A stretch of DNA of 64,000 nt, from assembly GCA_964342815.1 (NCBI GenBank), contig CAYFHS010000017.1, positions 1-64,000 of the forward strand, read 5' to 3'. The stretch comes from an uncultured archaeon (GTDB lineage Archaea > Thermoplasmatota > Penumbrarchaeia > JASLWR01). Shown here piece after piece: positions 5,363 through 49,600 of the stretch (its first letter is position 1; each line of letters begins with the position of its first letter). The notes under the pieces are model-generated. The model made no database searches. It saw only the letters and a list, made by a program, of their open reading frames with translations, and had not been told where the DNA came from. The translations under genes were made by a program, and so were the position numbers.

Positions 5363-5845
5363 TTATCTGCGGTACTTTCTCGAAAACAGTATTGCCACTC
5401 CCAAGAAAATTACGAGAGCCTCAATCCCAATAAATCCAGGAGAATCATCCTTGGAATCACCATTTGTATCATCCTCATTGACAGCCTGGGTGACAGTCAG
5501 TGTTATATACTCTTCATCCACCGTATTTGGTTCTTCGGTTATCTCACCGTCAATTACCGTGATCTCCAGCTGATATTCTCCTTCCGGAATGGTCGATGGC
5601 ACGGTTATAGTACAGGTAAACTTGCGCCTATCTTCATCATCCATGGATCCGTCGTCGGTCATTTTTACATTACCCTCATCAAGATCACCGAGATCGATGG
5701 TCACCTTATCAATGTCTGAAATACCGTTCTCATCTGCCACGATTACCGACAGGACAACCTCGGTCTCATCATCATTTGGGACTGAAGAGGGGGTCGCTCG
5801 GAGCTTTGAGAGGACCGGGATATAATTGAGCGGTGGTTTCCTCAA
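5363..5845 (-). pseudogene. Frameshift-separated C-terminal part of the choice-of-anchor X surface protein: last Ig-like repeat plus PGF-CTERM sorting signal
   Basis: Repeat PSSVPNDDETEVVL...MTDDG; ends SPGFIGIEALVIFLGVAILFSRKYRR; overlaps the upstream ORF out of frame. Confidence 0.75.
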
Positions 5846-7976
5846 CCCGCACAGTTATGCTGGTTTCAGCTTCAAATCCGTCCTTATCCACAGCCTGTAT
5901 GGTGATCTGGTAATCACCTTCATCGATATTGTCTGCCACGGTTATGGTTAAAGTATATGTTTCACTGCCATCATCATACTGCATTTCATAGTTGGATAAG
6001 AGACCCAAAGGAGTTAGATCTGCGAACACCGATTCCAGGTTATCATCTTCATCGTTGGCATCCACATAAAAGGTCAGTTCGGTTTCCCCATCGTTGGGAA
6101 CTGTTGGCGAAGACAGCTGAACGTCATCTATGGTGGGTGCATGAAGCTGCGCGCTTACAGTTATGGTAATATTCTGGTAAACATCCATGGGATTGATCCC
6201 GTCATCCCTCGCCGTTATCATTGCCACATATTCGTCGGGTTCGATGTAAGTCGGGACGATAAGCAAGCATGAATAGGTCCCGTCATCAGCAAGCTCGTCC
6301 CCGTCGTTTCCATCATCCGTCATAGGTGAGTATTTCGAACCGCCCAGATCCTTTAGATTTATCTCTACGGCATGGGAATCCTCCTCATCCGGGTCATCGA
6401 GCTCGACAGTTAGTAAATTTTCAGTGCTCCCATCATTTGGAACCGTTTCCAGCAGCGCCTTGGGATTGGAGAGCACCGGAGGATTATTGGCAATCAAAAC
6501 CTTAAGAGAGATTTGATCAAATACCTCTTCATCCGCCCAGTCCCTTGCTCTCACCGAGAGTTGATAGGTTCCCGGGATGGTATCGATATCAATTACCGTT
6601 CTTACAGAATAGATATCATCATCCTCGGAAACATCTCCTGCAGCACCGTTATCAAGCATAGGAGTGAACTCTTTACCTCCTATAGCCCTGAGATCCACGG
6701 TGACATCCTTCAACATCTTTTCATTTGCAGTATTTTGATCTGTGACCTCGGCGGTGAGAAGGACTTCGGTATCCTCATCGTTGGGCGCTTCCCCTGGATC
6801 TGCAGATGTTTCTTCAATTTCCGGTGGAAAATTTCTCAAAACCACTGTCAGCTGACCGAGAACTGTATCGTTGACCAATCCGTCTTTATCGCGGGCCGTT
6901 ATCGCTAAATTATAATCACCCGGAACAGTATCCGTGGAAACAGTGATTTCGATGGAATAATAATCATCGGAGGCGCTTGTATCGCCATGGGAACCGTCAT
7001 CATACATTTCTTGTGATGCATCCCCTCCCAGCTGCGATATGTCGATTATCACCGGATTGCTGCTGGCCAAACCCTCTCCATCGATAACCTTGACCTTTAA
7101 TAGAGTGGTTTCTAGTTCGTCATTTGCCACAGTATCAGGGTCTGCTGAAAACAAGCTAACCTGGGGTTTGTTATTTACTGCAATAGATGTATCGAAAAGT
7201 TCTTCAATACCTTTCTTCGTATCAGTATTGTTATAGGTTTCTTCATAATCAACATATAGAAATGTCCCGTAATCGACAGAATACCACCTGTTGTCTTTCT
7301 GGGCGGTTCCCGAAGCGGTAATTTTATAACATTGGACATTGGAAGCTGCAGGGACGCTCTTCGACTCGGTTCCCGAGCATTGGGCAGCCAGGTTTATGGT
7401 CGCTTGCTTTATCTTGTTGATGCTCATTCCCCCGGCATTTCCGACCTTGTGGACTGTCTTGGTCGTCATGACATTCCATGCATCCGGAAGTCCGTCGGGT
7501 TCGATGGGAAAGGCGTAATAATCCTCCACCGGGGAATAGCTTATGAAGTAATGATAGTAATAGTCCATTCCACCACCGCTGCCATCTTCGTACCTATATT
7601 CGTAAACCATGGCCAGGTCCGATTTTCGAATCAACCTGAACCCTGAATACGTCCCGGCTTTATTCATCGAGCTTCCCGCAGCGTTGAAGGTCCCGGAAAT
7701 CGTCAGGTTGTAACAGGTATGCCCGTCGTAGATGGACGTTCCCGCCACTGTATATTTTACGCGATTGTTCCAAGCATATTCCGAGGATCCCCCCATCCCA
7801 CTCACTTCTTTGGTGTTATACGCCTCATTATATTCCCAGTAATCACCGTTATTCCACACGGGTACCTGGGCGCTTGCTCTGGTACTCCCGGAACCGGTGG
7901 CCGAAAATTGCATTAATCCAGCGGTCAAAAACAATATCGCTATCAACAGTTGCGAACTCTTTTTCATTTTTTTCAC
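5772..7976 (-). CDS. Secreted surface protein with four choice-of-anchor X-like repeats (N-terminal part, frameshifted before its anchor)
   Basis: Signal peptide; P.W..GD.W.Y N-terminal domain; repeats with PND..TE.LL and M.DDG..GD..A.D..YS. Confidence 0.8.
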   Translation of the reverse strand: MKKMKKSSQLLIAILFLTAGLMQFSATGSGSTRASAQVPVWNNGDYWEYNEAYNTKEVSGMGGSSEYAWNNRVKYTVAGTSIYDGHTCYNLTISGTFNAAGSSMNKAGTYSGFRLIRKSDLAMVYEYRYEDGSGGGMDYYYHYFISYSPVEDYYAFPIEPDGLPDAWNVMTTKTVHKVGNAGGMSINKIKQATINLAAQCSGTESKSVPAASNVQCYKITASGTAQKDNRWYSVDYGTFLYVDYEETYNNTDTKKGIEELFDTSIAVNNKPQVSLFSADPDTVANDELETTLLKVKVIDGEGLASSNPVIIDISQLGGDASQEMYDDGSHGDTSASDDYYSIEITVSTDTVPGDYNLAITARDKDGLVNDTVLGQLTVVLRNFPPEIEETSADPGEAPNDEDTEVLLTAEVTDQNTANEKMLKDVTVDLRAIGGKEFTPMLDNGAAGDVSEDDDIYSVRTVIDIDTIPGTYQLSVRARDWADEEVFDQISLKVLIANNPPVLSNPKALLETVPNDGSTENLLTVELDDPDEEDSHAVEINLKDLGGSKYSPMTDDGNDGDELADDGTYSCLLIVPTYIEPDEYVAMITARDDGINPMDVYQNITITVSAQLHAPTIDDVQLSSPTVPNDGETELTFYVDANDEDDNLESVFADLTPLGLLSNYEMQYDDGSETYTLTITVADNIDEGDYQITIQAVDKDGFEAETSITVRVEETTAQLYPGPLKAPSDPLFSPK

Positions 7977-12122: not shown

Positions 12123-14849
12123 TTAGAAAACAATTGAGTAGTAAGCGACTAGATATACTCCGACGACGATAAGTATAATCCCACTTATACGTTTTATCCA
12201 TGCAGTTGACACTTTAAGTTTTTGTAGGAGGGTCCCGGCGGACATTGCTATCAAGATTGTGACGAGAACCATTAGTGCAGCCATGACGGAAGCAAGTATC
12301 AAAAAGATGAGCAAGGCCGTAAAAAAGTTCCCCGAACTGAAAGCGGTAAAGATGAGTGCTAAAAGGAGAGGTGCCGTACATCCCGCTGCCGCCCCCGCAT
12401 AACCAACTCCATACCAGAATAATTTCATGTAACCCTTTTTCTTCGCGGACTCAAATCGACTATTCAAATTGGATGGCTCTTTCTTCCTCACGAACATTTT
12501 CTTTACAGGTTCGGTTATTCTTGAAAATGGTATCGTGTAATTCGTAAGCATGACTATTCCAAGGAAAACTATAATAACACCCACGAAGGGTTCGATTACA
12601 GGTATGTATGGTGTGATTGCACTTCCACTAATTCCAACGATTACTCCCAACAACATATATAGAAGGACCAAACCAAGAGCTGCTGCGCCCCCTCCCATCA
12701 ACGCACGGCGGATGCTTCTGGATTTATCGAGCCCCATATAATATGACATATAGCCTGGTAGAAGCGGGAATGAACAAGGAGAAAAGAAGGAACCCACTCC
12801 CACCACCACCGCGAATCCGGCCAAACCCAAAGGGGTCGAACCCAGAGAAACAAGTGCCGCACCACCACCCAATGCCTTCTCCACCTCTTGTGTCAAAGTC
12901 GATTCCGGAACTGCACCCACGTGCGAAAATGTAACGCCACCGTTTTCTTCTATGATGACGATCTTGGGAATTGACACGATATTATATTTTGTTTTGAGAT
13001 CATCCGTATCTCTCGCAAATATCCAAGTTGCCTTATGTTTATTCATAAATTCCCGGAGCTGATCTTCATCTTCATTTTCATATACATCGATGGATATCAT
13101 TACGATATCGTCCCCGTATTTTTCATAAATGGCTCTTAGATCGGGCATTGCGTCATTGCAGGGACCGCATGAAACTGCCATGAAATCTATCACTACCACC
13201 TTCCCCTCGAAATCCGAGAGGCTGAATTCATTACCGTCAATATCTGTCAGAGTGAAATCAGGTGCTTTTTCCCCGCCTCGCATAGAAAGAAGATATATGG
13301 AACCGATGATCATTGCTAGAATGATCAGAGCAATGAACATGAAAAACATTTTCCTATTCTTCTTCAATGTTCCAAACATTGATCCATTCTCGGATCCATT
13401 CGCCTTCTGCTTACCTCTGGAAACAAAAAGGAAAATCGCAATTATTAAAACAAGCAGAATACCCAGTATCAAAAATACGGTTCCCATGGAGAATTGCCCG
13501 TCTGCTTCACTGCTCGAAACACCCTTCGAGATGGTGAAATCGTATATTGAAGAGCGCCCTTCCGCACCCAGACCTCCCGATTCGATCCCACTGCCATCGT
13601 ACGCAAGGATCATCAAATATATATTACCCGAATCGCTGACTTCGATGGTGGTGCTTGCGGTGCTGTCTCCATATGCATAGCATACTCCGGCGTCATCGCA
13701 AACCTCCTCCCCGGTAAGATTCATCTCCGCATACGACCATCGCGTGGAATTGGGTGCTTCGAAATTGTAAAGCACTACTGCTTTTGAGATTCCGTCAATG
13801 TCATCGATCTTTGCATTTACAGTTATTTTTCGGTCAACGACAGTATTGACCTTGGATATCACCGGCAGATCGTTCTCCCGGTCAAAGGCGCTGGACGCTG
13901 GGTTTGCCGACTGAATACACCGCGGCACCTGGGCATTGTTACCCTGGTTGCCTTCCTGGGAACTGGTATCGTCGAGATCGTAAATTGCAGCGACGGCCGT
14001 AAGGTTCCCTGGTCTGATAGGGACCTTTGCCTCAGGTATTTTCCATTCCACCGTGGTTATGAATGTGTCATCATTAGATAGGGTGAACTCCTGACCTTTT
14101 ATCGCATAATCTCTAAAGACGTTTCGATTTATGACCATACGGCCCTCAACGGTACTGAAGGCCTCGACATTCTCTTCCACCATGAAAACATACAAACTTG
14201 CTCGAAGCTGCTCATATGGCAGTATGGCATTGCTTCCGAGATAATGGACCTGAACATTGATTGCATAACTGTCTCCGTTATAAATTTGATCCACGAACAG
14301 ATCAACGTATTTGAAATTATTACCCAGCGATTGGAGAGGATGTCTCGGGTTGATATTTCGCTTGTATCGCTCCTTGGAATCCTCAACAGCCTGGACTGCA
14401 GTATTATAGTTCAGCGTTCCACCGGTCATTCCTCCCAGTTCGATATAACCACCGTCGAATTCCGTATCCGGCGTGCCGGACACACCCGGTTGATAATGCC
14501 GCATTCGTTCTTTCGAATCAGCAGTGGCAAGATCGTCCTCACCACCACCGTTCAACTCGTGAAAAACCACAAAATTGAATGGTTGTTCGGGATCTTCATA
14601 GTTCTCATCCCAAAGTTTATCAAGGTCATAGTGGGGCCCGTTCATGCATGACGGGCAGCTCAATCCAGTGAAGAACTCTATAAGCGGCCGGTGGCGGTAT
14701 CCGGAAGGTGCGGGTATGTTTATCGTTGAATCCAAATCCGGGATATCATCGTATTCCTGTACAGACCCAGCTTGTATGGTGTTTATGAATATTGACAATA
14801 CCAGAATTAATAGAACAATAATTACGATTTTTGTAGCTTTTCTTTTCAT
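12123..14849 (-). CDS. Membrane fusion protein: Omp28/thioredoxin-like CxxC domain + TlpA-like redoxin + CcdA/DsbD transmembrane domain
   Basis: Signal anchor; EFFTGLSCPSC; APDFTL.D..G..FSLSDF.GKVVVIDF...SCGPC; SFFSPCSFPLLPGY and AAGCTAP (CcdA cysteines). Confidence 0.85.
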   Translation of the reverse strand: MKRKATKIVIIVLLILVLSIFINTIQAGSVQEYDDIPDLDSTINIPAPSGYRHRPLIEFFTGLSCPSCMNGPHYDLDKLWDENYEDPEQPFNFVVFHELNGGGEDDLATADSKERMRHYQPGVSGTPDTEFDGGYIELGGMTGGTLNYNTAVQAVEDSKERYKRNINPRHPLQSLGNNFKYVDLFVDQIYNGDSYAINVQVHYLGSNAILPYEQLRASLYVFMVEENVEAFSTVEGRMVINRNVFRDYAIKGQEFTLSNDDTFITTVEWKIPEAKVPIRPGNLTAVAAIYDLDDTSSQEGNQGNNAQVPRCIQSANPASSAFDRENDLPVISKVNTVVDRKITVNAKIDDIDGISKAVVLYNFEAPNSTRWSYAEMNLTGEEVCDDAGVCYAYGDSTASTTIEVSDSGNIYLMILAYDGSGIESGGLGAEGRSSIYDFTISKGVSSSEADGQFSMGTVFLILGILLVLIIAIFLFVSRGKQKANGSENGSMFGTLKKNRKMFFMFIALIILAMIIGSIYLLSMRGGEKAPDFTLTDIDGNEFSLSDFEGKVVVIDFMAVSCGPCNDAMPDLRAIYEKYGDDIVMISIDVYENEDEDQLREFMNKHKATWIFARDTDDLKTKYNIVSIPKIVIIEENGGVTFSHVGAVPESTLTQEVEKALGGGAALVSLGSTPLGLAGFAVVVGVGSFFSPCSFPLLPGYMSYYMGLDKSRSIRRALMGGGAAALGLVLLYMLLGVIVGISGSAITPYIPVIEPFVGVIIVFLGIVMLTNYTIPFSRITEPVKKMFVRKKEPSNLNSRFESAKKKGYMKLFWYGVGYAGAAAGCTAPLLLALIFTAFSSGNFFTALLIFLILASVMAALMVLVTILIAMSAGTLLQKLKVSTAWIKRISGIILIVVGVYLVAYYSIVF

Positions 14850-14881
14850 GTATAACCCGGCACATGGCATATTGTCAATGG

Positions 14882-15264
14882 TGAAAATCTCGATGACCCC
14901 TGCGGGCTCATCTGACTTTCCCGCAGGTATGCTGTAAAGTCTCGAAAGAAAGTCGAGATTTTCAGCTTAGCAATGTTAGCGGAATCTCGGCCCGTAGGAA
15001 ACAAAATGTTTCCGAGGGCTCAGCAATGCCGAAGGTATTGCGGAATATAGTGGGAGCCTGTAGGTTTCCGAAGGAAATCGAAGGCTCAGGTGCATTTTTA
15101 ATGCACCGGAATCTGACCGGACACTTGCGGGCACCTGTAGGAACCTGAAGGGTTCTGAAGGTGCAGTTGCATCTCGATGCAACGGAGTAAAACGGGCAGG
15201 TCAGATGTGCCGTCAGGTACATCGAGATGTAATGGGAGCCCGTAGGGTCGATTCCGCCGAATAT
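14882..15264 (+). ncRNA. Candidate modular structured ncRNA / dispersed structured repeat, copy 1 (three tandem GUA/GA stem modules)
   Basis: Closing stem GCGGAATC 14979-14986 / GATTCCGC 15250-15257; three internal units with compensatory changes; homologous copy at ~43400-43633. Confidence 0.65.
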
Positions 15265-15591
15265 AACACTGTTAAAGTTCGATAACAATTCTTTGATACA
15301 TTAATCTTTTTGCCCCAATGGATTCCATAGAATCGGTGCATTTTGGTCGTATTTCCATCTGGTTATCTCAATCTAGATTCGATCCGACTTTGGGTTATTA
15401 ATAAACTCCATCAACCAAAATAGTTATGTGTGAATCATGGCGAGAATATCATATTAAAATCAACATAAGAAGATGCAGTATACGATAAATATATTCGGCT
15501 CGTACTTTTTATATATCATGAACATTATTAATTTAGCCACAAATAATTCCCAACGAAAATAACAAAAAATAACATTAACAGGTGAATAAAT

Positions 15592-18876: not shown

Positions 18877-21800
18877 TTATTCCGGTACCAATTCGGGCAA
18901 TTCATCCTCCTTTTCGCCCCCTGAGTCCCCGTGCCTATTTTTCAGGTCATCGAACCACGATCGTACTGATCGGCTAGCATCCCCTTCGACATTTGGATCA
19001 TCAACGGACGCTGCAGCAATATCCGCGTTCAGCGAATGCTCTTTTATATGAGGTTTATCTTTCTTTTCAGATACTTTATTTGAGGCAGCATTCTGAAACT
19101 TATTTATCAGGAAGTCCAGTCGTTCCTTCGTCTTCCCGTTTAAAACCATCTGTTTATCCCCGCGTCCAGCTTCATTTACCATATCCTCTTTTTCGAATAT
19201 CTTCTCCTTGGATTCTGGAACTGCGGCAGGCTCTTTAATATTTTGAGAGCTCACAACAATCCTCGGGAGCTTCGCTCCCCCAATATCCTCCGATTTAAGT
19301 TCTCGAATGATCCGGGGAGCCTTACTCTTTTTTGGCTTGCCGGACTCGGCTTTGACCTCTCGGATGATCTTCGGTAACTTTTTTTCCTTTTTCCCACCAG
19401 GCAATTCATCGTCCAAATAGTCAGGCTTCTTTCCCTCGAACTTCAAGAATGGTTTCTCCTGAAGCTCATAGGCTTGAAGAGATATTTCCTCCGGGAATTT
19501 CCCCTTTATCTCTTCGGATGGAAAAGCAGGCACGGAACCTGTTTCCACGGCGGTTAACTCCGGCAATAAAAGTTCGGGCTGAGGACTTTTTACAGCCGAT
19601 CCCTGCCCAAAGGAATCAGGGAACTTTGGAACTATCATCGCACTTTCATCGATGATCTTGCCCGATTTCGAATATTTGAATCCCTTTTGAAATGATGGAT
19701 CCGACGGAACAACCCTTCCGGTCTCATCCTTTGATGATTTTTTCTTCTGCCGCGAATAATCTATCTTTACTTCCCGGGGTTCCATATCCTCAATGATCGA
19801 CCTTTTCCTGCTCTTCCTCCTCGATATAACAATAAACAGCACAATTATGAACAACAATACGATCCCAATACCTCCCAACAAGTAGTAATACCAGCCTGAA
19901 AGTTGGCTCGAAACACTCCCGTCAACGCTCTCGCCCATCTGCTTTTCCTTTACTTTGATCTCCAGTAGTATGAAATCTCCGGGCTTCTCTTCTGAATCCC
20001 TCAACTGGAGCCGAGCGATGTATGTACCTGCCTGTGAATATGAATATGTGGTTTCCTCATTCTTTATCCATTCGGTTGTGTCACCATCGCCAAACACGAA
20101 AAGGAATTCTTCAGCTTCTTCACGGTGATTTATCGACCGAAACGTTACAATCTCTCCTACAACGGGCGTCTCCGGTATCACTATGAGATAAGCGTCGAGC
20201 CGGTTCTTTGTTGAAAGAACTGTCAGATTGTAGCTAATTTCAGAGGACCACAATCCATGGCTATCCTTTAATTTGAAATAAATGATATGTTCTCCTGCAC
20301 TCAACGTTTTTTCGAATTCGGGATCATCTGATAGAAAACCATCCAACGAGGAACGCCATGAATACTCTTCAAACTGACCGCTGCCACCTGAACCACGGCC
20401 TCTAAAGGTTATTTCATCCTCTTCCTTTGGAAGGGCGGGCTCCATCAGCTCGATCCTCGCAACGGGAGCGCCTTCTTTCCCCTCTACCACCAGCAAGCTC
20501 TGGAAAGGAGGGGACAACCTAGCACCCGAATCCCTGACGCGGAGGCTGATGATATGGTGTCCAACGGAGAGTGATTTTATCTTGAACGAAGCGGTTCTTG
20601 CCAGCTCCCCGTCAATGTCTGAGAACCAGATATATTCCACGATCTCCCCGGTTTTTGCCTCACCGCGACCTATTAGCGCGACTTCCCCATCCTGGACGGA
20701 TGGATTTGGATGGATATTTTCGATAGATGCAGTTGGGGCTGCATCGGTATCCATGACCAAAAGCTCCTTCTTTACCTCGGCGGACCATAGGCTGGCCGAG
20801 TCCCTGACCGAAAAAAATATGACATGTCTTCCGGCGGTTAACGAGGAACTTGTGAAGGTGTCGCTACTCGAAAGCAAACCATCTCGATCGGAACGCCAGC
20901 GGAATTCAATGTGGATACCGGTTCCGCCATTTCCTTTTCCCATGAAAGAAACAGCTTCTCCCGTATACAATGGCGAAGGTGCGATGGAAATTATCTCTGC
21001 AATGGGTGCATCGTCGTCCATCCTGATCGTTACAGAACCGGTAACTTCTGAGGACCAGCGTGCTTTACTGTCCTGAACCTTGAAATATATGATATGATCA
21101 CCGACAGAGAGGTTGTTGGCCATGAAGGCAGCTTTACCGGATATGGTTCCATCGATGTCGGAACGCCACATATACTTAATATAAGTGCCGCTGCCCCCTT
21201 TGGCTGAACCTTCGAAGGACACTTTTTCTCCGTAACTGCATTCTGCAGGTGAAATCGATTCTATTTGAGCAGTGGCGGCACCCGGATCGGCTTTTACAGT
21301 AAAGACCTGTGTGGCCGATTCACTCCAGACGCCGTGTGAATCCCCGCACTGGAAATAAATAGTATGAATTCCAACGGAAAGAGTCCCGGTAGAAAATTCC
21401 GCCATGTCTGATATATATCCGTCGATGGACGACTGCCATTTATATTCAGTTATCCCGCCGGTCCCACCAGTCCCGGCACCCGATAAGCTTACCTCACCGC
21501 CGTATGTAGTTGTCGATGGTGAGATACTTTTTATTATCGCTGTGGGTAGGGGATTAATGTCGATATCCACTGTGGTCGGCAAGGACCACACTCCAAGTCC
21601 GTCCCTGACCTTGAAAGAGACATGATATGTCCCTGCCTCCTCGTACCCATGTGAAGGGGAAGAACTTTGATCTGCGATGTCATCCCCGAAATCCCATTGA
21701 TATTCTTTGATCCCGGCGGTACCTCTAGTACCAGAACCGGAGAACTGGATCTCCTCTGAGACCGTGGCGGGATTGAGGCTTACGGATTCCAAAACCGCAA

Positions 21801-24357
21801 GCGGTAGTGGATTGATCTCGACGGTACGCGTAATGAGCTGAGACCATATATCATGGGAATCCTTTACTTTAAAAGTTACCGTGTACGTGCCTTCTTTCAC
21901 GTATGCATGATCCACGTTAGCGGCATCGTCTGCATCCGAGTCGCCGAAGTCCCACATAAATCCGACAACACCGCCAGTTCCCCCGGAACCCGAGCCTGAA
22001 AATGAAACGGGAATTCCCACCGTGGCCGGATTCGGAGCCATAGATAAAATTTCCCCCAAGGGTAGGGGATTTATCAGTACCGTACCCGACACCGGCACCG
22101 ACCAGATGTTGTGGGAATCCTTTACCTTGAGAGTGATAGTGTAAGTACCCGGCTTTGCGTAAATATGTGTGGGTTCCTGGATATTCGATGTAGAAGTGTC
22201 ACCCAGGTCCCAGTAGTACTCACCTATGCCTCCGGTTCCCCCGGAGGCGGCTGCAATTAGCTTTACCGGTTCCGTGAGGGTGGCAGCGGCCGGGGCAATC
22301 GAGCTTATCTCGGCAGTGGGTCTTTCATTCACTGTAACAGCCACCGAGGCCACGGGAGACCAAACGTCTTGGCTGTCCTGGACCTTCAATTTAACGGAGT
22401 AGCTTCCCTCCCGATTGTATGCATGGGTGGGATTCTGTGCCGATGAGGAAGAACCGTCGTCGAAATCCCAGAGGTAGCTCAATGAGCCGGTCCCCCGTGA
22501 GCCGCTTCCCGAAAATGAGATTATCTCAGTTGCCGTTGCGGGATTGGACCTCACCGATATTATGGTCGCCTGAGGGATTTGATTTACCACCACGGTGGAG
22601 GTCGCAGCTGCTGACCAGATATTATGGTTGTCTTTTACTCTGAAAGATACCGTATATGTACCAGCAGTCGAATAGCTGTGTGTGGGCGTGCGTGAGGACG
22701 ATGTCTTGGTATCGCCGAAATCCCATTCGTATGAGAGTGAGCCCGTGCCGTGGGCTCCGGTCCCGGTGAAACTGATACTAACGCCGACAGTAGCCGGATT
22801 GGGAGAGAGCCCGCTTATGGTTGCCGTGGGTTTGCGGTTTATGGTTATCTGGTAATTCACCCATGGAGTGTAGGTATCGTGACTGTCCTTTGCCCTGAAT
22901 TTGACCGTAAAGGTACCATGACCCGTGTAAACGTGATTTGGCGCCTCGCCGGTGGTGGTGCTGCCATCACCGAAATTCCAGTCTGCCATGCTCATGGGCC
23001 CCCACCCTCCTGACATGCTGCCCTTGAACGACACTCTCTCGGAGACAGTGGCTGGGTCCGGCGAAACCGTATCTATGGATGCTGCGGGCTTGGCGTGTAC
23101 TACAATGGTTTTAATATCGGAATCGGTCCGAGCCTGGTCATCGGTTACTGTTAGCTGTACGTTAAATGTGCCTGGATTGTTGAATCTGTGCGACGGGTTG
23201 ACCGACTGTGAGGTTCCCCCGTCCCCAAAATTCCAGCGGTAGGAATATGGTGACAAACCGCCCTTGGTACTCGAAGAAAAGCTTACGTCGAATGGAGCAT
23301 ATCCCTCCGCCGTATTTGCAGAAACTGTGGTTGCCAGGTCGGTGGCGGTGTAATCAAGGCTGATCCAGACGTCATCTAGCCAGAATTTGAAATATTCGAA
23401 ATTGTAAGGCCATGAGCCATATAAACGGGTTTGGAGACCAAAGATAAGAACGAATTCCCTGCTGTTCACGGCATGTGTGTTAAAAAAATTAGGCAGGTTC
23501 CCGCCTCCGCTGAGAGAGTCCAGTAACTTATTGTTAACGCTCACGGAAGGATTGGTAACACCTGAGGCCTGATCGTTTGGATCCCAGAAATCCAGGCACT
23601 TCCCGTTGCTGTCGGCCAATGGATCGGATGACGTCTTGAAATGTTCCAACATGGGATAGGTATTGCCATCCCCAATGAACGACGTCAGTATCACAAAATT
23701 GTTATTGTGATCGAAATCACCGCTGGATATCTTGTAATCGGCCCATACCCTGGCACCGGTTATGGTGTAATCGTCCCAGTATATGTAGTCGTCAAGGTCG
23801 AACCATCGGTAACACCGGGCATATCCCCTGCTGTCCTCGCTTACGGCAATACCCCCGTTCTCACCGGCTTGTACGCACCAGGCGCCGGCGGCACCCGTGC
23901 CATCCGCAAGATCTTCATCGGGCCTGACACGACTGTATATTCCCTCGCCGTTGGTCCAGGTCTGGGGTACGTCCTCGGTATCGTCAAAATCATCATTGGT
24001 TATGGCTTCCTGAGTGATCCAGCCATTCTTGTGGGCCAGAGACCAGTCACCTGGATGATTGTGATTACCATCCTCGAAATTCATACCCTGGCCTCCCTGA
24101 CCAGGTGTGAAATCCATTCCAACATTGGCGTTCACGGCCCTAGACAGAGGGATTTTTACGGTCCCCTGCATATCATGGTTCGCGGGCTCATCATGGTCCT
24201 CCTCAAGAGACAAATCAACGATCGTGGATACCGGTGAGTTTTTCTCTTTTCCCGCAGTAGATCCAAAATTGGTTGCGAGGAGAGCTAATGATGCAATGAT
24301 GATTACGGTAAAGACTATAATAGTCGTTCTTGACCCGACCTGGTCTGTTTTTCCCAT
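18877..24357 (-). CDS. Giant PKD-repeat surface protein with C-terminal TM and charged cytoplasmic tail
   Basis: About a dozen PKD-like repeats (Y.WDFGDG.....P.H.Y...GTY.V...V.D; later variants Y.W.S..DG); TM YYYLLGGIGIVLLFIIVLFIVIS. Confidence 0.9.
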   Translation of the reverse strand: MGKTDQVGSRTTIIVFTVIIIASLALLATNFGSTAGKEKNSPVSTIVDLSLEEDHDEPANHDMQGTVKIPLSRAVNANVGMDFTPGQGGQGMNFEDGNHNHPGDWSLAHKNGWITQEAITNDDFDDTEDVPQTWTNGEGIYSRVRPDEDLADGTGAAGAWCVQAGENGGIAVSEDSRGYARCYRWFDLDDYIYWDDYTITGARVWADYKISSGDFDHNNNFVILTSFIGDGNTYPMLEHFKTSSDPLADSNGKCLDFWDPNDQASGVTNPSVSVNNKLLDSLSGGGNLPNFFNTHAVNSREFVLIFGLQTRLYGSWPYNFEYFKFWLDDVWISLDYTATDLATTVSANTAEGYAPFDVSFSSSTKGGLSPYSYRWNFGDGGTSQSVNPSHRFNNPGTFNVQLTVTDDQARTDSDIKTIVVHAKPAASIDTVSPDPATVSERVSFKGSMSGGWGPMSMADWNFGDGSTTTGEAPNHVYTGHGTFTVKFRAKDSHDTYTPWVNYQITINRKPTATISGLSPNPATVGVSISFTGTGAHGTGSLSYEWDFGDTKTSSSRTPTHSYSTAGTYTVSFRVKDNHNIWSAAATSTVVVNQIPQATIISVRSNPATATEIISFSGSGSRGTGSLSYLWDFDDGSSSSAQNPTHAYNREGSYSVKLKVQDSQDVWSPVASVAVTVNERPTAEISSIAPAAATLTEPVKLIAAASGGTGGIGEYYWDLGDTSTSNIQEPTHIYAKPGTYTITLKVKDSHNIWSVPVSGTVLINPLPLGEILSMAPNPATVGIPVSFSGSGSGGTGGVVGFMWDFGDSDADDAANVDHAYVKEGTYTVTFKVKDSHDIWSQLITRTVEINPLPLAVLESVSLNPATVSEEIQFSGSGTRGTAGIKEYQWDFGDDIADQSSSPSHGYEEAGTYHVSFKVRDGLGVWSLPTTVDIDINPLPTAIIKSISPSTTTYGGEVSLSGAGTGGTGGITEYKWQSSIDGYISDMAEFSTGTLSVGIHTIYFQCGDSHGVWSESATQVFTVKADPGAATAQIESISPAECSYGEKVSFEGSAKGGSGTYIKYMWRSDIDGTISGKAAFMANNLSVGDHIIYFKVQDSKARWSSEVTGSVTIRMDDDAPIAEIISIAPSPLYTGEAVSFMGKGNGGTGIHIEFRWRSDRDGLLSSSDTFTSSSLTAGRHVIFFSVRDSASLWSAEVKKELLVMDTDAAPTASIENIHPNPSVQDGEVALIGRGEAKTGEIVEYIWFSDIDGELARTASFKIKSLSVGHHIISLRVRDSGARLSPPFQSLLVVEGKEGAPVARIELMEPALPKEEDEITFRGRGSGGSGQFEEYSWRSSLDGFLSDDPEFEKTLSAGEHIIYFKLKDSHGLWSSEISYNLTVLSTKNRLDAYLIVIPETPVVGEIVTFRSINHREEAEEFLFVFGDGDTTEWIKNEETTYSYSQAGTYIARLQLRDSEEKPGDFILLEIKVKEKQMGESVDGSVSSQLSGWYYYLLGGIGIVLLFIIVLFIVISRRKSRKRSIIEDMEPREVKIDYSRQKKKSSKDETGRVVPSDPSFQKGFKYSKSGKIIDESAMIVPKFPDSFGQGSAVKSPQPELLLPELTAVETGSVPAFPSEEIKGKFPEEISLQAYELQEKPFLKFEGKKPDYLDDELPGGKKEKKLPKIIREVKAESGKPKKSKAPRIIRELKSEDIGGAKLPRIVVSSQNIKEPAAVPESKEKIFEKEDMVNEAGRGDKQMVLNGKTKERLDFLINKFQNAASNKVSEKKDKPHIKEHSLNADIAAASVDDPNVEGDASRSVRSWFDDLKNRHGDSGGEKEDELPELVPE

Positions 24358-30844: not shown

Positions 30845-32380
30845 ATGACCGAGGATAAAGGAGCACAGGATCGAACGCTTGGAAACTGGCGTCGAACCCA
30901 TTACTGCGGCGACATATGGAAATATTCCTACGGGAGAACGGTTGTGGTAGGCGGGTGGATACAAGAGCTGAGGAACCTAGGAGGAGTGGCGTTTTTAAAG
31001 CTGCGGGACCGGACAGGAACCCTGCAGATCACTCTTGAAAAGAGCACGATACCGGAAATTTTCGACTCTCTCTCGGACCTCTCGAGAGAAAGCGTGATAA
31101 TGGTAAAGGGAAAGGTTATGGAAAATCCACGTGCTCCAAGGGGTTTCGAGATCATACCTGAGGAGGTGAAGGTTCTGGCCGAGTCCGCAGTACCCCTGCC
31201 GCTGGGTGTGTCAGACAAGGTGTTTGCAGAGCTGGACACGCGGCTGGATAAGCGATTTCTGGATCTCAGAAAGAGAGAAATTTATTCTATCTTCAAGATA
31301 AAGGGCGAGATACTGGATGCCATGGTCAGGGGACTTCAGGGGCTGGGTTTCGTTCAAGTGCAGACACCCAAGATCGTCGCCACGGCTACCGAAGGAGGTA
31401 CCGAGCTTTTCGAGGTAGATTATTTCAAGAACAAATGTTATCTGAACCAGTCGCCACAGCTGTACAAGCAAATGCTCATGGGTGCCGGTTTCGACCGGGT
31501 GTTCGAAATAGGCCCGGCCTTCAGGGCGGAAGAGCATGATACGGTCAGACATTTAAACGAGTTCATTTCCATAGATATCGAAATGTCCTTTGCGGACGAG
31601 TGGGATGCAATGGACGTTCTCGAGAAGGTGGTCCGTTCCGCCGTTGAGAGAGCTTCCGAATGCAAAAAGGAGATCGAGTCCATAAACGACGGCCGGAAAA
31701 CGCTTAATAAACTCATAAACAAGGTAAATCAAAACGTGGCTGTCACTAATAAAAGAATCAAAAAGGAGAACCAGAGGGCGAAGGCGGTAGGTGAAGAGCC
31801 AAAACAGCTGTTGAAACCAAAAGAAAAGTTTGATACACTCGACATCAAGCCAATCGAAAAGACGATTCTAAGCTACATGGACAACTACGATGCGGAAAAG
31901 GCAAAGAAAGCCGGAATGCCGAGAGTGAAATACGAGGAATGCATCGAAATTGCGCAGGCCAAGAGAATAGACGTCGATTTCGGCGAGGACCTTTCAATGG
32001 AGGCCATGAAGGTAATAGCGGAAGTTTACCCGTCGTATTATTTCATTACGCACTGGCCTACGGAGATAAAACCATTTTACGTACAGCCTTACGAGAACAC
32101 GCCTGAGGTCTGCCGGTCCTTCGACCTGAACTTCGGGCCAAAAGAGATCACTTCGGGGGCACAGCGCGTTCACGACATAGAGTTACTGGAATCGAATTTG
32201 AAGGCAAAAAACCTTGATCCAAAGAATTTCGATTTTTATCTTGACCCGTTCAGGTTCGGAATGCCGCCGCATGCAGGGTGGGGGCTTGGTCTCGAGCGCT
32301 TGATGATGGTTCTGACGGGGGTTCGAAATGTGCGGGAGGTCGTGCTGTTCCCGAGGGATAGATATAGGCTTGTACCGTGA
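30845..32380 (+). CDS. aspS: Archaeal-type aspartate-tRNA(Asp/Asn) ligase, probably non-discriminating, with an internal insertion
   Basis: RRTHY, TRLDKRFLDLR, ATEGGTELF, LNQSPQLYKQ, FRAEEH...RHLNEF, GMPPHAGWGLGLER, FPRDR. Confidence 0.95.
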   Translation: MTEDKGAQDRTLGNWRRTHYCGDIWKYSYGRTVVVGGWIQELRNLGGVAFLKLRDRTGTLQITLEKSTIPEIFDSLSDLSRESVIMVKGKVMENPRAPRGFEIIPEEVKVLAESAVPLPLGVSDKVFAELDTRLDKRFLDLRKREIYSIFKIKGEILDAMVRGLQGLGFVQVQTPKIVATATEGGTELFEVDYFKNKCYLNQSPQLYKQMLMGAGFDRVFEIGPAFRAEEHDTVRHLNEFISIDIEMSFADEWDAMDVLEKVVRSAVERASECKKEIESINDGRKTLNKLINKVNQNVAVTNKRIKKENQRAKAVGEEPKQLLKPKEKFDTLDIKPIEKTILSYMDNYDAEKAKKAGMPRVKYEECIEIAQAKRIDVDFGEDLSMEAMKVIAEVYPSYYFITHWPTEIKPFYVQPYENTPEVCRSFDLNFGPKEITSGAQRVHDIELLESNLKAKNLDPKNFDFYLDPFRFGMPPHAGWGLGLERLMMVLTGVRNVREVVLFPRDRYRLVP

Positions 32381-42980: not shown

Positions 42981-43357
42981 CTCCGAGATGGTCAGTGAAA
43001 AATCCTGAAATGACCTTTGGAGCTGATACGGTCGAATAATAATATTCGTTTCAAGTCAAAACTGGGTTCCTAGAGTATATCCGAGGTGAATTGACCAGGG
43101 AAAAGAGAGATATTTCGGGATACATCGGGGATTGTTGGGCTTCTCCAACCATATTATGTCTATTTGTGGGGTCAATCGCCTTCATTTCAACCCAATTTCA
43201 ACGATAATCCTTCATCGAATAAGAGTATTAAGGCAGGTGTGACTTTTTGATAGGTCTCGTGGTTCATGTGAGTAATGTTAAATATAACATTAATAATGTG
43301 GTAGGAAAATCTAATAGGGCAATTCATGGGCACTAATAATATTATCTGGCAAGTAAG

Positions 43358-43399: not shown

Positions 43400-43633
43400 C
43401 TATCGATGCCCGTATATTGTCAAATGGACAAACATCGACTTTTATCGATGTTTGCATATGATAATGTTCGCAGAATCGCAGCCCGTAGGTGCCTGAAGAA
43501 CGAAGTTCTTCTACACCCTAATAGAATCTCAGATTCTATGTCGGGAAACAGAATGTTTCTGAGGGCACAGCAACGCCCGAAAGGTGTTGCGAAGTGGAAC
43601 GGGTGCCCGAAGGGACCGATTCTGCTGAATATT
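43400..43633 (+). ncRNA. Candidate structured ncRNA / cis-regulatory leader, copy 2 of the element at 14882-15264
   Basis: Closing stem AATGTTCGCAGAATCG 43463-43478 / CGATTCTGC-T-GAATATT 43617-43633; shared GCCCGTAGG, GAAACARAATGTTTC, GAGGGCWCA-hairpin; ends just before the aglB RBS. Confidence 0.65.
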
Positions 43634-43648
43634 CAACAGGTGGATCTG

Positions 43649-46600
43649 ATGGTGAAAGAGATACCAAGAACGAAGAAATGGGAAAAAACGTTATCATCAG
43701 CGTCGGGGAAAAAGGCAGAAAAAGAAAGCCTGGTCACCAAATTCAAAACCTATTTCGGTATTGGAGCTTACGAGGGAAAGGATACTTGGTTCTCTCGTAA
43801 TTGGTGGTTACTATTGGCGCTGGCGGGAATATTTCTGGTGGGTATGTTCCTGAGATCTTACTTCTATTTTCCCATGGCACAGGACGTGGGCTTTTCAGGG
43901 AACGACCCCTATTATCACAAAAGAGTAGTAGATTACATCCAGCAATCTCATTCACATCTGATAGAGGACAACATGCTGAATTATCCGGTTGGTGGCGCTA
44001 ATCCGCGACCTCCGTTCTACAACTGGTTCGTTGCGGTTTTCGGCATCATTCTTTCACCGTTATTCGGATTCAATGTAAAACTCGCCACGGAATCTATCAT
44101 GTATCTAGCACCTTCCTTCTGGGGAGCATTGACAGTATTTCCGGTCTATTTCCTCGCCAAGGATATGTTTGGTAAAAAGGCGGGCGTAATAAGCGCATTT
44201 CTCATGGCATTCATGCCTTCCCATATCGAAAGGTCTCCTTCGGGATTCTCGGATCACGATTCTATAGTCGTCTTCTTCGTGGTGTTGTCGATATTCCTGC
44301 TGTTCAGGGCATATCGCACACTTAAGCACGAGGACTGGGTAAAGGACTGGCGAAGCACGAATTCGATCTATAAGGGATTTTCAACCTTCTTCAGAAAAAA
44401 TAAGGTATCACTGTATTACTCGCTTCTTTCGGGCGTTTCGCTGGCAACCATCGCACTTACCTGGAAAGGTTTTCCGTACGCTCTTGTGATCATAATCATA
44501 TATTACATGCTTCAGCTTCTTTTCGATCGCTTCAGACACGTTGATTCAACCGGCGTTTTTATTTGTACTTTTCTGGCTCTTTTCTCTGCTTTGGCCATCT
44601 CGTTTCCGTACTATTACGTTCTCAGTTTCGGAACCTGGGCCACACCGGTCTATTTCCTTGCGGCTGTGGTTGTGATCGGAGTTTTGCTTATACCCACTCG
44701 TGATTATCCATGGATCATAGTGCTGCCTCTGGGAGTGATAGTGTCCCTTGTTGGCTATCTCTTCCTGAGCATCATTGCACCTGCAGCTGCCGAAGCTCTG
44801 ATAACGGGACAGGGTTATTTCGTGAAGACGAAACTGTACTCCACAATTGCTGAGGCTCAGCCTCCCGCATTTTCCAAGCTTATCGTGTCGTACGCAATGA
44901 TCGTGTTCTTCCTCGCAGTGATAGGGATCGTGAAAGCGGCTTTTCAGGTGCCGAAACACTGGAAGAGGGAATTTGTCTTCATCGTTGTTTGGGCCATCGT
45001 TGCCGTGTACATGGCCATGTCGGCCGCTCGTTTCATGTTCAACGCGACACCTGTGATAGCCATTGTTGCCGGATGGGTGCTGTACGACCTGATCCAAAAG
45101 ATAAACCTGAAGAGCAAGATATTGATATTCTATACTCTGATGCTTGGCCTGTCCCTGCTATTGCTGGGATGGTGGGGGATAAATCATGGATTCGGATACA
45201 AGTACACATTGTTTGTCTTTATGGCAGCGATCGCAATGGCAGCCATTCCAATTATCGTGGCCGTCTATGATAATTACGATAAAAGACCCGCCATAATGAT
45301 AATGGTTGCCATGTGTGCAATTTGGACCGTTGCGGTCATAGTTATGATTATTTTGGATGAAAACCTAAAATGGGACAACTTCGGAACTGTCATGCTGGAT
45401 AATATTAACATTTGGTATTTCGGCCTTGCTGCCCTGGGGATAATGGTCCTCCCGATACTCATATTTATAACCAAAAGGACTTTTGCGATTCTTCATATAA
45501 TATTGATCACATCGGCCACATTTCTAATAATCGGACTCAAAGATACAGGTTCCTTCGACAGCTTGTTCACTTGGAAACCAATGGTTGTGGCGGTGGGATA
45601 TTCCATAATTCCCTGTGGAATATTGTTATTCAATATCTATTTCCTGTTCTCGGATAAATCTTACAGGAAGGAAACGGGCCGAAAGGTGCTTTTCGTAGGA
45701 CTGGAACTCTGGGTGCTTTCCTTTTTCTTCGATCCGCAAATATACACGGGACTCGCGGCCTTTGCTCTTTTCGTGATTAATCTTTACCTGCTAACTCCCT
45801 ACAGGAAAACTTTCAAGCACAAGACCAAACCAATGCATGTGATTATCACTCTATTCATCGTATTTATCGTAATATTCCCCACCTGCTGGTTTGCGATAGA
45901 TGCTTCCCTGCCTTATGAAAAGAAATTTGAGATGAATAACAGAGTTGCAAGGTCAATTCCCGATTTCATTAAAAGTGATACGGCTTCGAACAACAAATAT
46001 TTCGGGGCCTTCGGTCACGGATTCACATCGGAATACTGGAGAAATGCATTTGATTGGCTTAGTAAACAGGACGTGGACAGGCCACCGGAGGAAAGACCCG
46101 GTTTCGTTAGCTGGTGGGATTACGGTTTCTGGTGCGCCTATCTCGGACAACATCCCACGGCTGCAGATAATTTCCAGTACGGTTACCAGTTTGCTGGAAG
46201 TTTCATCGCCTCCCAGAATGAATCGGAGGCAGTTGGATTGATGGTTGCCAGAACTATAGAAGGCGGTATCAAGGATCCTAAAATGAAAGAGGAGATCTCT
46301 GACATCCTCGATAGCGATAAATATTTCGGGCCCGAGAAAAAATTCAAGAGCAACATCGATTCGTCCGATCTCAGCGCAAGTGAAAAGATATTCGAGATGT
46401 TGTTATATCCCGAGGAATACATAGAAGAGATAAAGAATAACCCGGAAAAATACGGCAAATACCTGCAGCTGCTCTATGGGAATGCCAGGTATGCATCGGT
46501 AAGAGGAATGCTGATGCCGCTAGGAGAGGATAAGATAATCGATCTAATGGCTGATATCGAGGGGATCACAGACAAGTGCATAAGATATTTCGCAGTGGAT

Positions 46601-49600
46601 TATCGCCTTTTCCCGTTCACGGCACAGAACACTGGTATCTTTTATGCTCCAATTAAACTGGCGGACAAGGATGTGGAGGATTTTCTGGAATATATTGCTG
46701 TTACCACAGAAGGCGATATGACCATGACGGAACTGGAAGAAAGGATATTACAAGAACCCGAATTCCGAGATCAGGTGACAGACTACAAATTGAAATACAC
46801 CGATCAATTCTACGATTCCATGTTCTACAGGTGTTATATAGGCTACAGCGGTAAAGACCTCGGTGCAGGTGATCTCGGGGTACCCCTGCTTTCCCCCACG
46901 GGTGAATTCGCCTCGAACCAGTATTTTCAACCGATGCAGGGATGGAACATGAGCCATTTCAGGCTCGTGTACCGGACTACCTACTACACCCCCATGGATC
47001 CCCAAAACGCATCGTTCCCGGAAGATTTCACCGCCATGAACTCCGATGAAGCATACGAACTGTACGCCGAGCAAGGCGGATATCAGATATCCGGTCTCAG
47101 ACAGGGCGCCTTCTTTCTCAAATACTACCACGGTGCGCAGCTGGTGGGAAAATTGAGAGCGGAAGGGGAGGACGGAACACCCATGCCAGGGGTCCGAATA
47201 ACCGCAGTGGATGAATACGGTATTCTCCACGATGTATCAATCACGGATGAGAACGGTAATTACAATCTGACCCTTCCATTCGGAGAGGTTACGGTTGTGG
47301 CATCCAAGGACGGATACGACGAAGAAAACGAGCTCTTCTCAAAATTAATGGGAAATGAGAAAACTGTACTGAACCGAACGGTTTTGCAGATCACTGATGA
47401 CCAGGCAATGAGGCGCGGCAACTGGATCATTAAAAAAGACCTCACCATAAAAAGATCCTCCATTGATGGTAAAGTGTACTACGATGACAATGACGACGGT
47501 GAATATGATATTTTCGATACATTGGCTACAGAAGCGGTTGTGGAGATCGTATCTAAGGACGGTCGTGAAATAACCTACAATGACAGTCTGGAAAACGGTG
47601 AATTCAACATCACGAACGTGCTGCCCGCCGAATACGATATAAGGGTGATGACGGACGGTCATACGGTGAAGATCAAAGATCCGTTCTCGGTGGTACCAAA
47701 CGAAAATCAGCGGTTCAATGCTTTCACATTGCACCTTTTACTGCCAATGGGGAACATTTCCGGGAACATAACGTTCGATAACGGGACCCGGGCGCCTTCG
47801 ATACACGTGGAACTGAGAGATAATGAAAACGGTACCTTATATCATACCGACACGAACAAAACAGGCTTTTTTAATTTTGGTTCCCTTCTCCCGGGAAACT
47901 ACTCCCTGGTGGTAGACCATACCCTGTACAAGAGGCTCATGAAGGATATCGACCTCGAAGAGGGAGCTCTTTTCCAGCACAACTTTACCTTGACCGAGGT
48001 GGTTCCCGTATCCGGCGAAGTCTATTATGAAGGGATTGATGATAATAAGCAGCCGCTTCCGAACGCCAGAATACAGTTCATTGACGAGCTGTACCCGGAA
48101 AACATAATAGTGGTCACATCCGATAAAAACGGCCAATACCTTGCTAATCTATCTCTCGGGAACTACACTATATATGCTGATTATACGAAAGGTAATGAGC
48201 ACTACACTTGCTTGGAAGAAGCCGAGTTCCGTGCTGGTGTGGAATATTCTAAGGATATTGAGTTAAGCAGCTCAATAAAGATAATGGGTACTCTTGGCAT
48301 TCATGATGAGATCGATGTGGAGGAGGATAATTCAACAAAGGGGGTACTTGTCCGTTTCAGAGGAGAGTCCGGCAATTACTTCGCTCCCACCAACGACAGC
48401 AGCTATTTTTCGGTCTATCTGCCAGAAGGTGAATATCAGATATCCGCCGATCTTTTCCTAAAAGGGGATTATGGCGTAGCCGCAAAACACGTATCGGGAA
48501 CCGGAGGTGAAGAAATCACCATTGACCTCATCGCTAAGTGGGCTTATCCCGTTTACGGTTTCGTTTTCTGGGATAGAAACGGCGACATGAACTTGACCAT
48601 TGGGAACAGTACTATCGATATAATGCGGCTATCGGAACAGTTTAGGGAGACTGAACCGGAATTGGAAGAGAACGATGAGATCCCCGAGGAATTTGAAGAT
48701 TCCACAAGTTCCATCGCCGAAACTGACGACAGCGGTACAAGAGCGGACGAAAATGTGACCGAGGGTGAAGAAGAAACCCCATTCAGCGTGGATAACGTCA
48801 CCCTCCCCAATGCAACCAATGATACCGTGGAAGCACCGCCGTTATATGAGAACCTAACCCCTGCACACGTGGAATTCCGGCAAGGAGAGAATGTCTTTAC
48901 TGCCGATACTAACCAAAGCGGGTTTTTCACACGCTTACTCCCTCTGGGAGATTATGTAATGCGGATTGAAACAGATGAAATTTCTCTGTATGAAACCACC
49001 GTAACCGTGTTTGACGGGAAAGATGACGTAATACAGCCTCCGATACGACCAAAAAATGTCACCTTCGACATATTCCTGGGAGTTGATCGGGACCTTGACG
49101 GGCAGCTTAAGGAAGACGAGCTCCTGAAGAGCTACGAACTGGAGTTTTCAGGCACAACTCCGGCTGCCGTGAATGCCACGTACAACTTCAGGCAGGGAAA
49201 TCCCAAGAAAGGGGCACTGGTACCAGGCGAATATAAAGTAAAATATCTGAAAGAATTCATACTGTCCGGGACTGATGTCCGCCAGGAGATGGAAACCAAC
49301 ATAACCCTGCATCTGGGTGAGAGTGATCGGCAGCTTATCTTCCTCGTGGATGAAACGGTACGCTTCTCTGGGAAGGCTAAGACTGAAACTGACAGCCCTG
49401 CAGACAACGCGACCCTGACCCTGAGATCCATACACTTCAACACCACCACCGAGGTAAATTGTGACAAGCAGGGGAATTTCGATGAAAATGTTCCCTTCGG
49501 AATGTATTTCGTAAGAACCAGTATCATTGAGGGCTCTTCGAACTTCCTCTTCAGGAAGATCATGGACATCTCCCCTGGAAACAGCCCATTCTCCATCATT

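Follow-up and report, generated by a model that had tools for sequence, protein, structure and literature searches.

A modular hairpin repeat of uncultured Thermoplasmatota that is probably a non-autonomous mobile element acting as a folded single strand

In this study, we analysed a window of 64,000 nucleotides (the whole stretch of DNA under examination) from an archaeal genome of 4.35 Mb (G000; 116 contigs, 45% G+C, 89% complete). The presence of genes for NMD3 and an STT3/AglB oligosaccharyltransferase in the window identifies the host as an archaeon, and readings of the conserved left end of the repeat described below as a sigma-54 or other bacterial promoter were dropped on that ground. 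Two copies of the repeat lie in the window, both on the plus strand. Copy 1 (14871–15262; 392 nt, ATTGTCAATGG ... GATTCCGCCGAAT) is antisense to a divergent Redoxin/thioredoxin/DsbD-like gene, ~20 nt upstream of the probable start of that gene (an ATG that is the complement of 14847–14849), and a same-strand gene of 1072 aa begins 330 nt downstream of the element. Copy 2 (43416–43630; 215 nt) is in sense, 18 nt before the ATG (43649) of an aglB/STT3-like gene with STT3/AglB domains, and that ATG is preceded by GGTGG, a ribosome-binding-like site. The open reading frame that follows copy 2 is large (43649–51880, about 2740 aa) and begins with its STT3/AglB domains, as found by a Pfam search of the first 1000 residues; another large open reading frame, of 1826 aa, occupies the minus strand at 18877–24357. 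Both window copies are situated within ~20 nt of a start codon (14847–14870 and 43631–43651), a position from which the family probably reshapes promoters and leaders.

A preliminary description of the locus had placed the left border of copy 1 at 14973. The true start is 14871 and the end is 15262; the region described earlier is the right-hand two thirds of the element and missed its first hairpin, P1. This hairpin spans 14869–14976, its base formed by ATATTGTC paired with (A)GCAATGT, and it is recovered when the copy is folded as DNA. The P1 apex carries an extra insert at ~14896–14937, on either side of which nhmmer matches the two halves of the hairpin (14869–14895 and 14938–14988). P1 is followed by the second hairpin, P2, whose closing stem is present as it had been described, with the 5' arm GCGGAATC (14979–14986, read from the sequence) paired with GATTCCGC at 15250–15257; the 3' arm and tail together occupy 15250–15262, where GATTCCGC is followed by CGAAT and the element ends in AT. 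The three units reported within this stem, of the form stem-GTA-hairpin-GA-stem-A-hairpin-GGA(A/G)T, are likewise there, and represent three 58-nt modules (M) carried as cargo in the P2 apex in addition to the one insert in the P1 apex. They are located at 14989–15046 (M1; GGCCC-GTA-hairpin-GA-GGGCT-CA-hairpin-GGAAT in the pair table), 15055–15112 (M2) and 15132–15188 (M3), and are matched by a covariance model of M (R2) with E values of 6.8e-17, 5.3e-17 and 6.6e-17, respectively. The nesting of the third unit stood in part: the two arms of the possible enclosing helix are present (ATCTGACC at 15111–15118 and GGTCAGAT at 15199–15206), but the minimum free energy fold pairs these positions otherwise. 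The apex ends in a terminal hairpin, GAGCCC-GTA-GGGTC (15236–15249), which from its sequence and a comparison with minimal copies corresponds to the module stem minus its inserted hairpins; a hairpin of this type is the sole apex of the minimal copies. A second covariance model (R1) matches copy 1 at 14869–15020. At gathering thresholds Rfam had no match in any part of the window, as had been anticipated, and at a permissive setting (E <= 10) on 14800–15450 it returned a single chance microRNA match (E = 5.2).

The folding of copy 1 is strong and depends on the strand. As RNA, 14960–15275 folds at -138.3 kcal/mol (z = -8.8; none of 100 shuffles equalled it), compared to -109.4 kcal/mol for the opposite strand, and the fold of the whole copy reaches -172.3 kcal/mol (z = -9.9). 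The same preference is found with DNA parameters, under which the plus strand of copy 1 folds at -83.5 kcal/mol and the minus strand at -73.6 kcal/mol. The fold of copy 2 has a z of -5.2.

Comparison of copies throughout the genome revealed a common chassis, present in every copy, that is composed of the hairpin P1 (ATTGTCAA/TTGACAAT), the hairpin P2 (CGCGGAATCG/CGATTCCGC) and a 3' tail ending in AT. At the base of P1, AUAUUGUC pairs with GACAAUGU, and one or two unpaired bases then precede P2, in which CGCGGAAUCG pairs with CGAUUCCGC; the tail is UGAAU, or UUCAU in one subfamily. Anchored alignments place the left border sharply at (AT)ATTGTCAATGG, with no conservation upstream. Minimal copies measure 77–98 nt and have a small hairpin such as GCCC-GGA-GGG as the P2 apex, while larger copies, with apical inserts in P2, P1 or both, reach about 450 nt. 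One P2-only copy (G000, contig C2, 742–840) consists of the closing stem and one M module with the usual ...GCTGAAT end and no upstream P1, so the right half of the element can exist alone.

An alignment of 18 minimal copies (A1; mean column identity 73%) supported both hairpins by covariation. Across the 29 pairs of P1 and P2, 95.7% of cells are paired and eight pairs have changed on both sides, values matched by none, or at most one, of 500 shuffles; when the partners are displaced by one, two or three columns, pairing falls to 27–43%. The nine-pair P2 stem taken by itself is 96.9% paired, with three pairs changed on both sides. Almost all one-sided changes in A1 give G-U (~30 cells beyond one invariant U-G pair, versus ~3 A-C cells), and in all 36 complete copies the plus strand is the more stable, by a mean of 9.7 kcal/mol and with 176 versus 65 G-U pairs. 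The plus-strand specificity claimed in the preliminary description is therefore borne out. As the elements occur in both genome orientations, this asymmetry is a property of the element, and one strand is the strand that must fold. The further argument that it shows selection at the RNA level was not supported, since a single-stranded DNA intermediate explains the bias equally well. Three-nucleotide loops, which are unusual for functional RNAs and more typical of DNA palindromes, close 39 of 84 distinct hairpins.

The modular build that had been proposed is well founded, the 58-nt M modules being separable from the chassis. In each M, the first strand of a 5-bp stem leads into GTA, a hairpin and GA; the return strand then completes the stem and is followed by CA, a second hairpin and GGARY. 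Among 27 modules of the source genome, all stem positions but two exhibit several pair types, the unpaired GUA, GA, CA and GGARY are conserved, and the pair beside GTA/GA varies in the manner first reported, being C-G in 15 modules and U-A in 10. The covariation of the units was confirmed in ten modules from this genome and its kin, in which 97% of cells are paired and 14 of 17 pairs have changed on both sides, with no shuffle matching; these modules were selected with a pairing grammar, which in part predetermines the percentage paired but not the variety of pair types. The model search from the units that had been suggested found more than 100 modules in each of three genomes: R2 has 105 matches in the source genome, 123 in a sister species of the same genus (G001) and 121 in a further relative (G003), versus one in a member of the same family (G002) and none in another relative (G005). 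That last genome has 68 copies of the chassis, and in the source genome M is also present in other repeat frameworks; the occurrence of M without chassis and of chassis without M demonstrates that the two are separable.

A paralog of copy 1 on contig C15 (11450–11906) is 97% identical to it over the P2 cargo, lacks M1 and has a different P1, which indicates that recombination between tandem units adds or removes modules and that elements swap parts. On contig C13 (108105–108159) an M module apparently lies within an acidic, repeat-rich coding region, possibly as an in-frame insertion. Another repeat family, with units of the form CTTTACCAAGAAGACGGTCACTTTGTTCC...TTTACGTGTAAAGCCGACCCATTCTGGC, is interleaved with M on contigs C14 (~76600–77100), C18 (~31200–31700) and C19 (~5800–6300), indicating that several repeat frameworks of this genome share the module. 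The 3-by-2 GUA/GA loop between Watson-Crick pairs in every M resembles the bulged-G motif of the sarcin-ricin loop and loop E (5'-GUA-3' opposite 5'-GA-3') and has the orientation given in the preliminary description. The motif in M is known by its sequence signature, however, and GUA/GA could instead be a feature by which a DNA hairpin is recognised. A K-turn reading of the same loop was rejected on inspection, as the bulged strand has no G-A step after its 3-nt bulge.

Both copies that had been distinguished in the window exist, but they are merely two of about 50 in the genome. A BLAST search with the region first described returned 47 matches from the same genome, spread over many contigs and both strands and in several cases at contig ends, and nhmmer together with R1 gave 56 matches, representing about 50 elements after exclusion of reverse-strand shadows of the palindromic P1. 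R1 also has 81 matches in G001, 89 in G003 and 68 in G005, with one to 11 in a small number of other members of the class; G002 and most other relatives searched have none. A scan of species genomes with 17-mers returned, among the matches listed, mostly chance bacterial hits, with several per genome only in MAGs of Thermoplasmatota or labelled 'uncultured archaeon'. Orientation relative to genes is near random: by rough ORF calls, the gene downstream is on the same strand for 27 copies and on the opposite strand for 22. A general role as a cis-regulatory leader was rejected for this reason.

The elements have been gained or lost between the sister species. Copy 1 is absent at the orthologous site in G001 (contig C22, ~67865–67885), where the flanks join gap-free without 14871–15262 and the target dinucleotide AT, found at 14869–14870 to the left of copy 1, occurs once in the junction alignment. 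This pattern, with AT to the left of the insert, is repeated at insertions in the sister species and at copy 2, which has AT at 43414–43415 and is absent at G001 contig C105 (~22576–22582): the filled site reads ATGCCCGTAT[ATTGTC...CTGAAT]ATTCAACAGG and the empty site ATGCCCGAATATTTAACAGG. In the sister species an A+T-rich stretch precedes this empty site, and copy 2 is located downstream of that stretch. In the reverse test, 20 copies of the sister species were taken with their flanks, and both flanks were located on one contig of the source genome for 13. One of these 13 sites is occupied (C2, 73297–73391) and at least eight are empty, with gaps of 12–53 nt that are too short for an element and clean junctions in those printed.

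Filled sites follow the rule X-AT-[ATTGTC ... GAAT or ...TCAT]-Y, versus X-AT-Y when empty, and the junctions fit insertion 3' of AT without duplication and a 2-bp AT duplication alike. The ends of the element have only ATT in common, and terminal inverted repeats are lacking. A+T content is 73% in the right flank, compared to 55% for the left flank and the genome, which makes the target asymmetric. Together, the AT-ending tail and the A+T-rich right flank rebuild a sequence like that of the original site (AATATT). A head-to-tail or circle junction (GCTGAATATTGTCAATGG) had no true case in the source genome, and its 44 metagenome matches were all due to chance, with no R1 match. The preliminary description had set identity with a MITE or REP against its reading of the locus; the element proves to be of that kind, though no described family matches it.

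An enzyme that might mobilise the family was sought among several classes. The HUH/RAYT or TnpB gene that the preliminary description had suggested looking for near other copies was not found: in the source genome there is no Y1 HUH transposase (PF01797), RAYT gene or TnpB zinc ribbon (PF07282). Y1 genes in G001, G003 and other genomes are flanked by other hairpins that have no R1 match, and across 41 relatives the presence of Y1 genes does not track the copy number of the element; G005, with its 68 elements, has no Y1 match. A search for the Y2 transposase of IS91 (PF04986) gave no match and is uninformative, as the control was silent everywhere as well. Among other candidates, IS110 was represented by one match, a DEDD transposase on contig C110 (1579 bp), which with 63% G+C in a genome of 45% is probably a binning contaminant. 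Two resolvase genes neither adjoin an element nor carry its ends, and the one DDE_Tnp_1 match is weak and on a 1.7-kb contig. Pfam searches of ten chosen multi-copy protein families identified no transposase among them, six having metabolic, regulatory or repeat domains, one a weak sub-threshold regulator match and three no Pfam match, and no copy with an ORF between P1 and P2 was found. MAGs often lose IS copies during assembly, and for that reason the absence of an enzyme is weak evidence.

The source genome does contain a true mini-element of the IS200/IS605 type, with two like hairpins (CCGCAGCTTGCTGCGG), at contig C40 (4976–5110) and contig C36 (~43058–43130), and tnpA-bearing copies with the same ends occur in G001 (contig C65, 2976–3338). 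A likeness between the M tail (GAAGTG...AACG...GGG) and the right end of this resident element was considered and found too weak to build on.

We consider the family to be most probably, at roughly 70%, a mobile element that is non-autonomous and works in the form of a folded single strand, as do the IS200/IS605-derived or REP elements. This reading is built on the dispersal and copy number of the element, its presence or absence at orthologous sites, its AT junctions, the lack of terminal inverted repeats and its strand-specific folding and covariation. The combination of a hairpin at each end, no inverted repeats, precise insertion after a short fixed sequence and folding of one strand argues for single-stranded-DNA processing of the HUH type; the single-stranded DNA intermediate, the guide pairing and the kind of enzyme are inferred.

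In the proposed mechanism, the plus ('top') strand would fold and be processed by a hairpin-recognising nuclease or transposase, in the manner of the 'peel and paste' elements of the IS200/IS605 type and of REP elements, and the element would land immediately 3' of an AT, with its own end being AT also. A single GU, situated in the P1–P2 joint, could pair with each of these dinucleotides, and the joint would then serve as an internal guide for both cut sites. The AU of the left flank would pair with the GU that closes P1 (as the invariant U-G and A-U pairs), and the terminal AU would pair with the same GU if P2 were extended by pairing GUUC with GAAU around a bulged U. The apical loops of P1 and P2 accept passenger sequence, and the number of modules changes through recombination or duplication between tandem modules. 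There is precedent for such a scheme in IS608, whose cleavage sites are recognised via short guide sequences 5' of the hairpin foot and not by the protein (PMC3201880), and whose top strand is released in the form of a circle that goes on to re-insert 3' of its target (PMC5027513).

The tail co-varies with the joint across subfamilies of the repeat: the joint TGTTCGC always occurs with the tail GCTGAAT and the joint TGTGCGC with GCTTCAT, a switch that amounts to exchange of U-A for G-C in the extended P2 helix. On these sequences, a shared guide for both cut sites is possible. The co-variation may equally reflect simple linkage within subfamilies, and one of the two changes disrupts a pair.

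Several findings count against the single-strand reading. No mobilising enzyme was found by the Y1 and TnpB searches of the source genome, and the Y1 genes of relatives have other flanking hairpins. P1 and P2 differ from each other, unlike the end hairpins of IS200/IS605 elements, and the sequence that would pair with the AT of the left flank is 3' of P1, unlike the geometry of IS608. The AT on both sides suits a 2-bp target duplication just as well. With a mean column identity of 73%, the copies are also more diverged than would be typical for a mobile element after a recent burst, a degree of divergence compatible with selection for some cellular function. Insertion of a copy in a leader, such as that of copy 2 before aglB, would lead to its transcription, and its structure may affect expression, which we read as a side effect; some copies may have a secondary role as RNA.

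The preliminary description took the locus for a discrete structured RNA gene, and the broader form of that explanation is a family of structured non-coding RNAs, stand-alone or acting as cis leaders, whose GUA/GA bulged-G loops bind a protein or form tertiary contacts and whose genes have multiplied. Much of what is described above would suit it, including the plus-strand-specific folding with its many G-U pairs, the rich covariation of the modules, the retention of unpaired GUA, GA, CA and GGARY in 27 modules and of structure in diverged copies, and the position of copy 2, in sense in the probable aglB leader 18 nt from the ATG. Single-stranded DNA accounts for the strand bias equally, however, and the rest of the evidence speaks against RNA genes as the primary explanation: nothing is conserved upstream of the element that could be a shared promoter, the copies are dispersed, some of them at contig ends, and are oriented both ways to genes (27 sense versus 22 antisense), and copy 1 is antisense to a gene 20 nt away. 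In addition, presence and absence are precise at orthologous sites, gains and losses between the sister species are rapid and affect unrelated loci, close relatives have anywhere from no copies (as in G002) to 89, triloops dominate and Rfam has no match. We therefore regard this explanation as unlikely.

Two explanations based on duplex-acting enzymes address the junctions. The flanking ATs could be the target-site duplication left by the 2-bp staggered cut of a DDE transposase acting in trans on a classical cut-and-paste MITE, for which a single AT at each empty site and an AT flanking the element on either side at each filled site would be the expected result, and a small, non-coding, high-copy, intergenic element is what such a MITE looks like. 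Nevertheless, its terminal inverted repeats would be at most 3 nt, the one-stranded folding is not required by a double-strand mechanism, the composition of the flanks is asymmetric, no copy containing an ORF was found, the sole DDE_Tnp_1 match is on a 1.7-kb contig, and the ten multi-copy families checked include no transposase; we find it improbable, to about the same degree as the RNA explanation. Alternatively, AT could be the 2-bp crossover core of a serine recombinase (IS607-like) or other site-specific recombinase, which would leave 2-bp identity at both junctions without inverted repeats, and two resolvase-domain genes exist in the source genome. As neither of those genes is associated with an element or its ends, the TnpB partner was not found in that genome and a duplex-acting enzyme leaves the strand-specific folding unexplained, this is by far the least probable of the explanations considered.

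Within the preferred reading of a mobile folded single strand, a bolder version may be formulated, namely that the family represents an undescribed class of archaeal mobile element that operates as a folded single strand without a recognisable transposase, selects AT sites via a 2–4-nt guide shared by its ends, and carries self-propagating modules of the bulged-G type that may work as RNA or as protein-binding DNA hairpins. We consider this doubtful. If true, the enzyme of such a class would reveal a new hairpin-guided nuclease or transposase, or an RNA-based route of mobility.

Our results convert an apparent orphan structured RNA into a testable mobile-element family of poorly known marine archaea, whose ends are precisely defined, whose target follows a rule, for which two covariance models exist and in which gain and loss between sister species are clear. 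As no known transposase accounts for the family, it is a lead to a new hairpin-recognising enzyme, and the identity of that enzyme is the question that would raise the value of the family. There is also a warning for RNA discovery, in that strong folding, covariation and G-U bias together are insufficient to establish an RNA gene if the sequence is itself a repeat that acts as a single strand.

The family differs from its nearest known kinds, the PATEs and the REP/BIME sequences, by its dissimilar end hairpins, a target of AT alone, nested modules that are repeats in their own right, an archaeal host and the lack of a matching HUH enzyme, and we found no earlier description of it, nor any of such repeats in Thermoplasmatota in the literature. 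More distant comparisons can be made with rolling-circle elements of the Helitron/IS91 type, which the AT site and 3' hairpin fit and for which the PF04986 search, with its silent control, was uninformative, and with the MITEs SM1–SM4 of Sulfolobus, in which the terminal inverted repeats match a resident IS and the target duplications are longer. The archaeal repeat described here is similarly non-autonomous, dispersed, intergenic and variable between strains, but has neither terminal inverted repeats nor longer target duplications.

REP, BIME and REPIN sequences of bacteria, which are associated with the RAYT protein (TnpA-REP), share with the family their high copy number, extragenic hairpins, structure that is kept while sequence drifts, mosaics and variable numbers. 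A GTAG tag is a feature of REPs, and the opening bases of M, GTA(G/A), similarly lie immediately 5' of the foot of a hairpin. A complex of a REP with its nuclease has been described (PMC3479197). The differences from REPs are substantial, however, as the units measure 77–450 nt and have two different hairpins and fixed ends, compared to a tagged palindrome of 20–40 nt, and they form clean single-copy insertions at AT in an archaeal host in which no RAYT was found.

The PATEs derived from IS200/IS605 (of the IS608 and ISDra2 type) are moved by a Y1 HUH transposase as single-stranded circles of the top strand. They resemble the family in being small and non-coding, in lacking terminal inverted repeats, in having a hairpin near each end and in folding on one strand. 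The resemblance extends to precise insertion after a short fixed sequence, to last element bases that are like the target, and to the possible pairing of cut sites with internal sequence beside a hairpin foot (PMC3201880, PMC5027513). On the other hand, the end hairpins of IS200/IS605 are alike, whereas P1 (ATTGTCAA...) and P2 (CGCGGAATCG...) are not, the target of the family is only AT, and its apices carry nested modules of up to 300 nt. The source genome has no Y1 gene and those of its relatives have other ends, and the true IS200-type PATE resident in the source genome (contig C40, 4976–5110, and contig C36, ~43058) looks quite unlike the repeat family.
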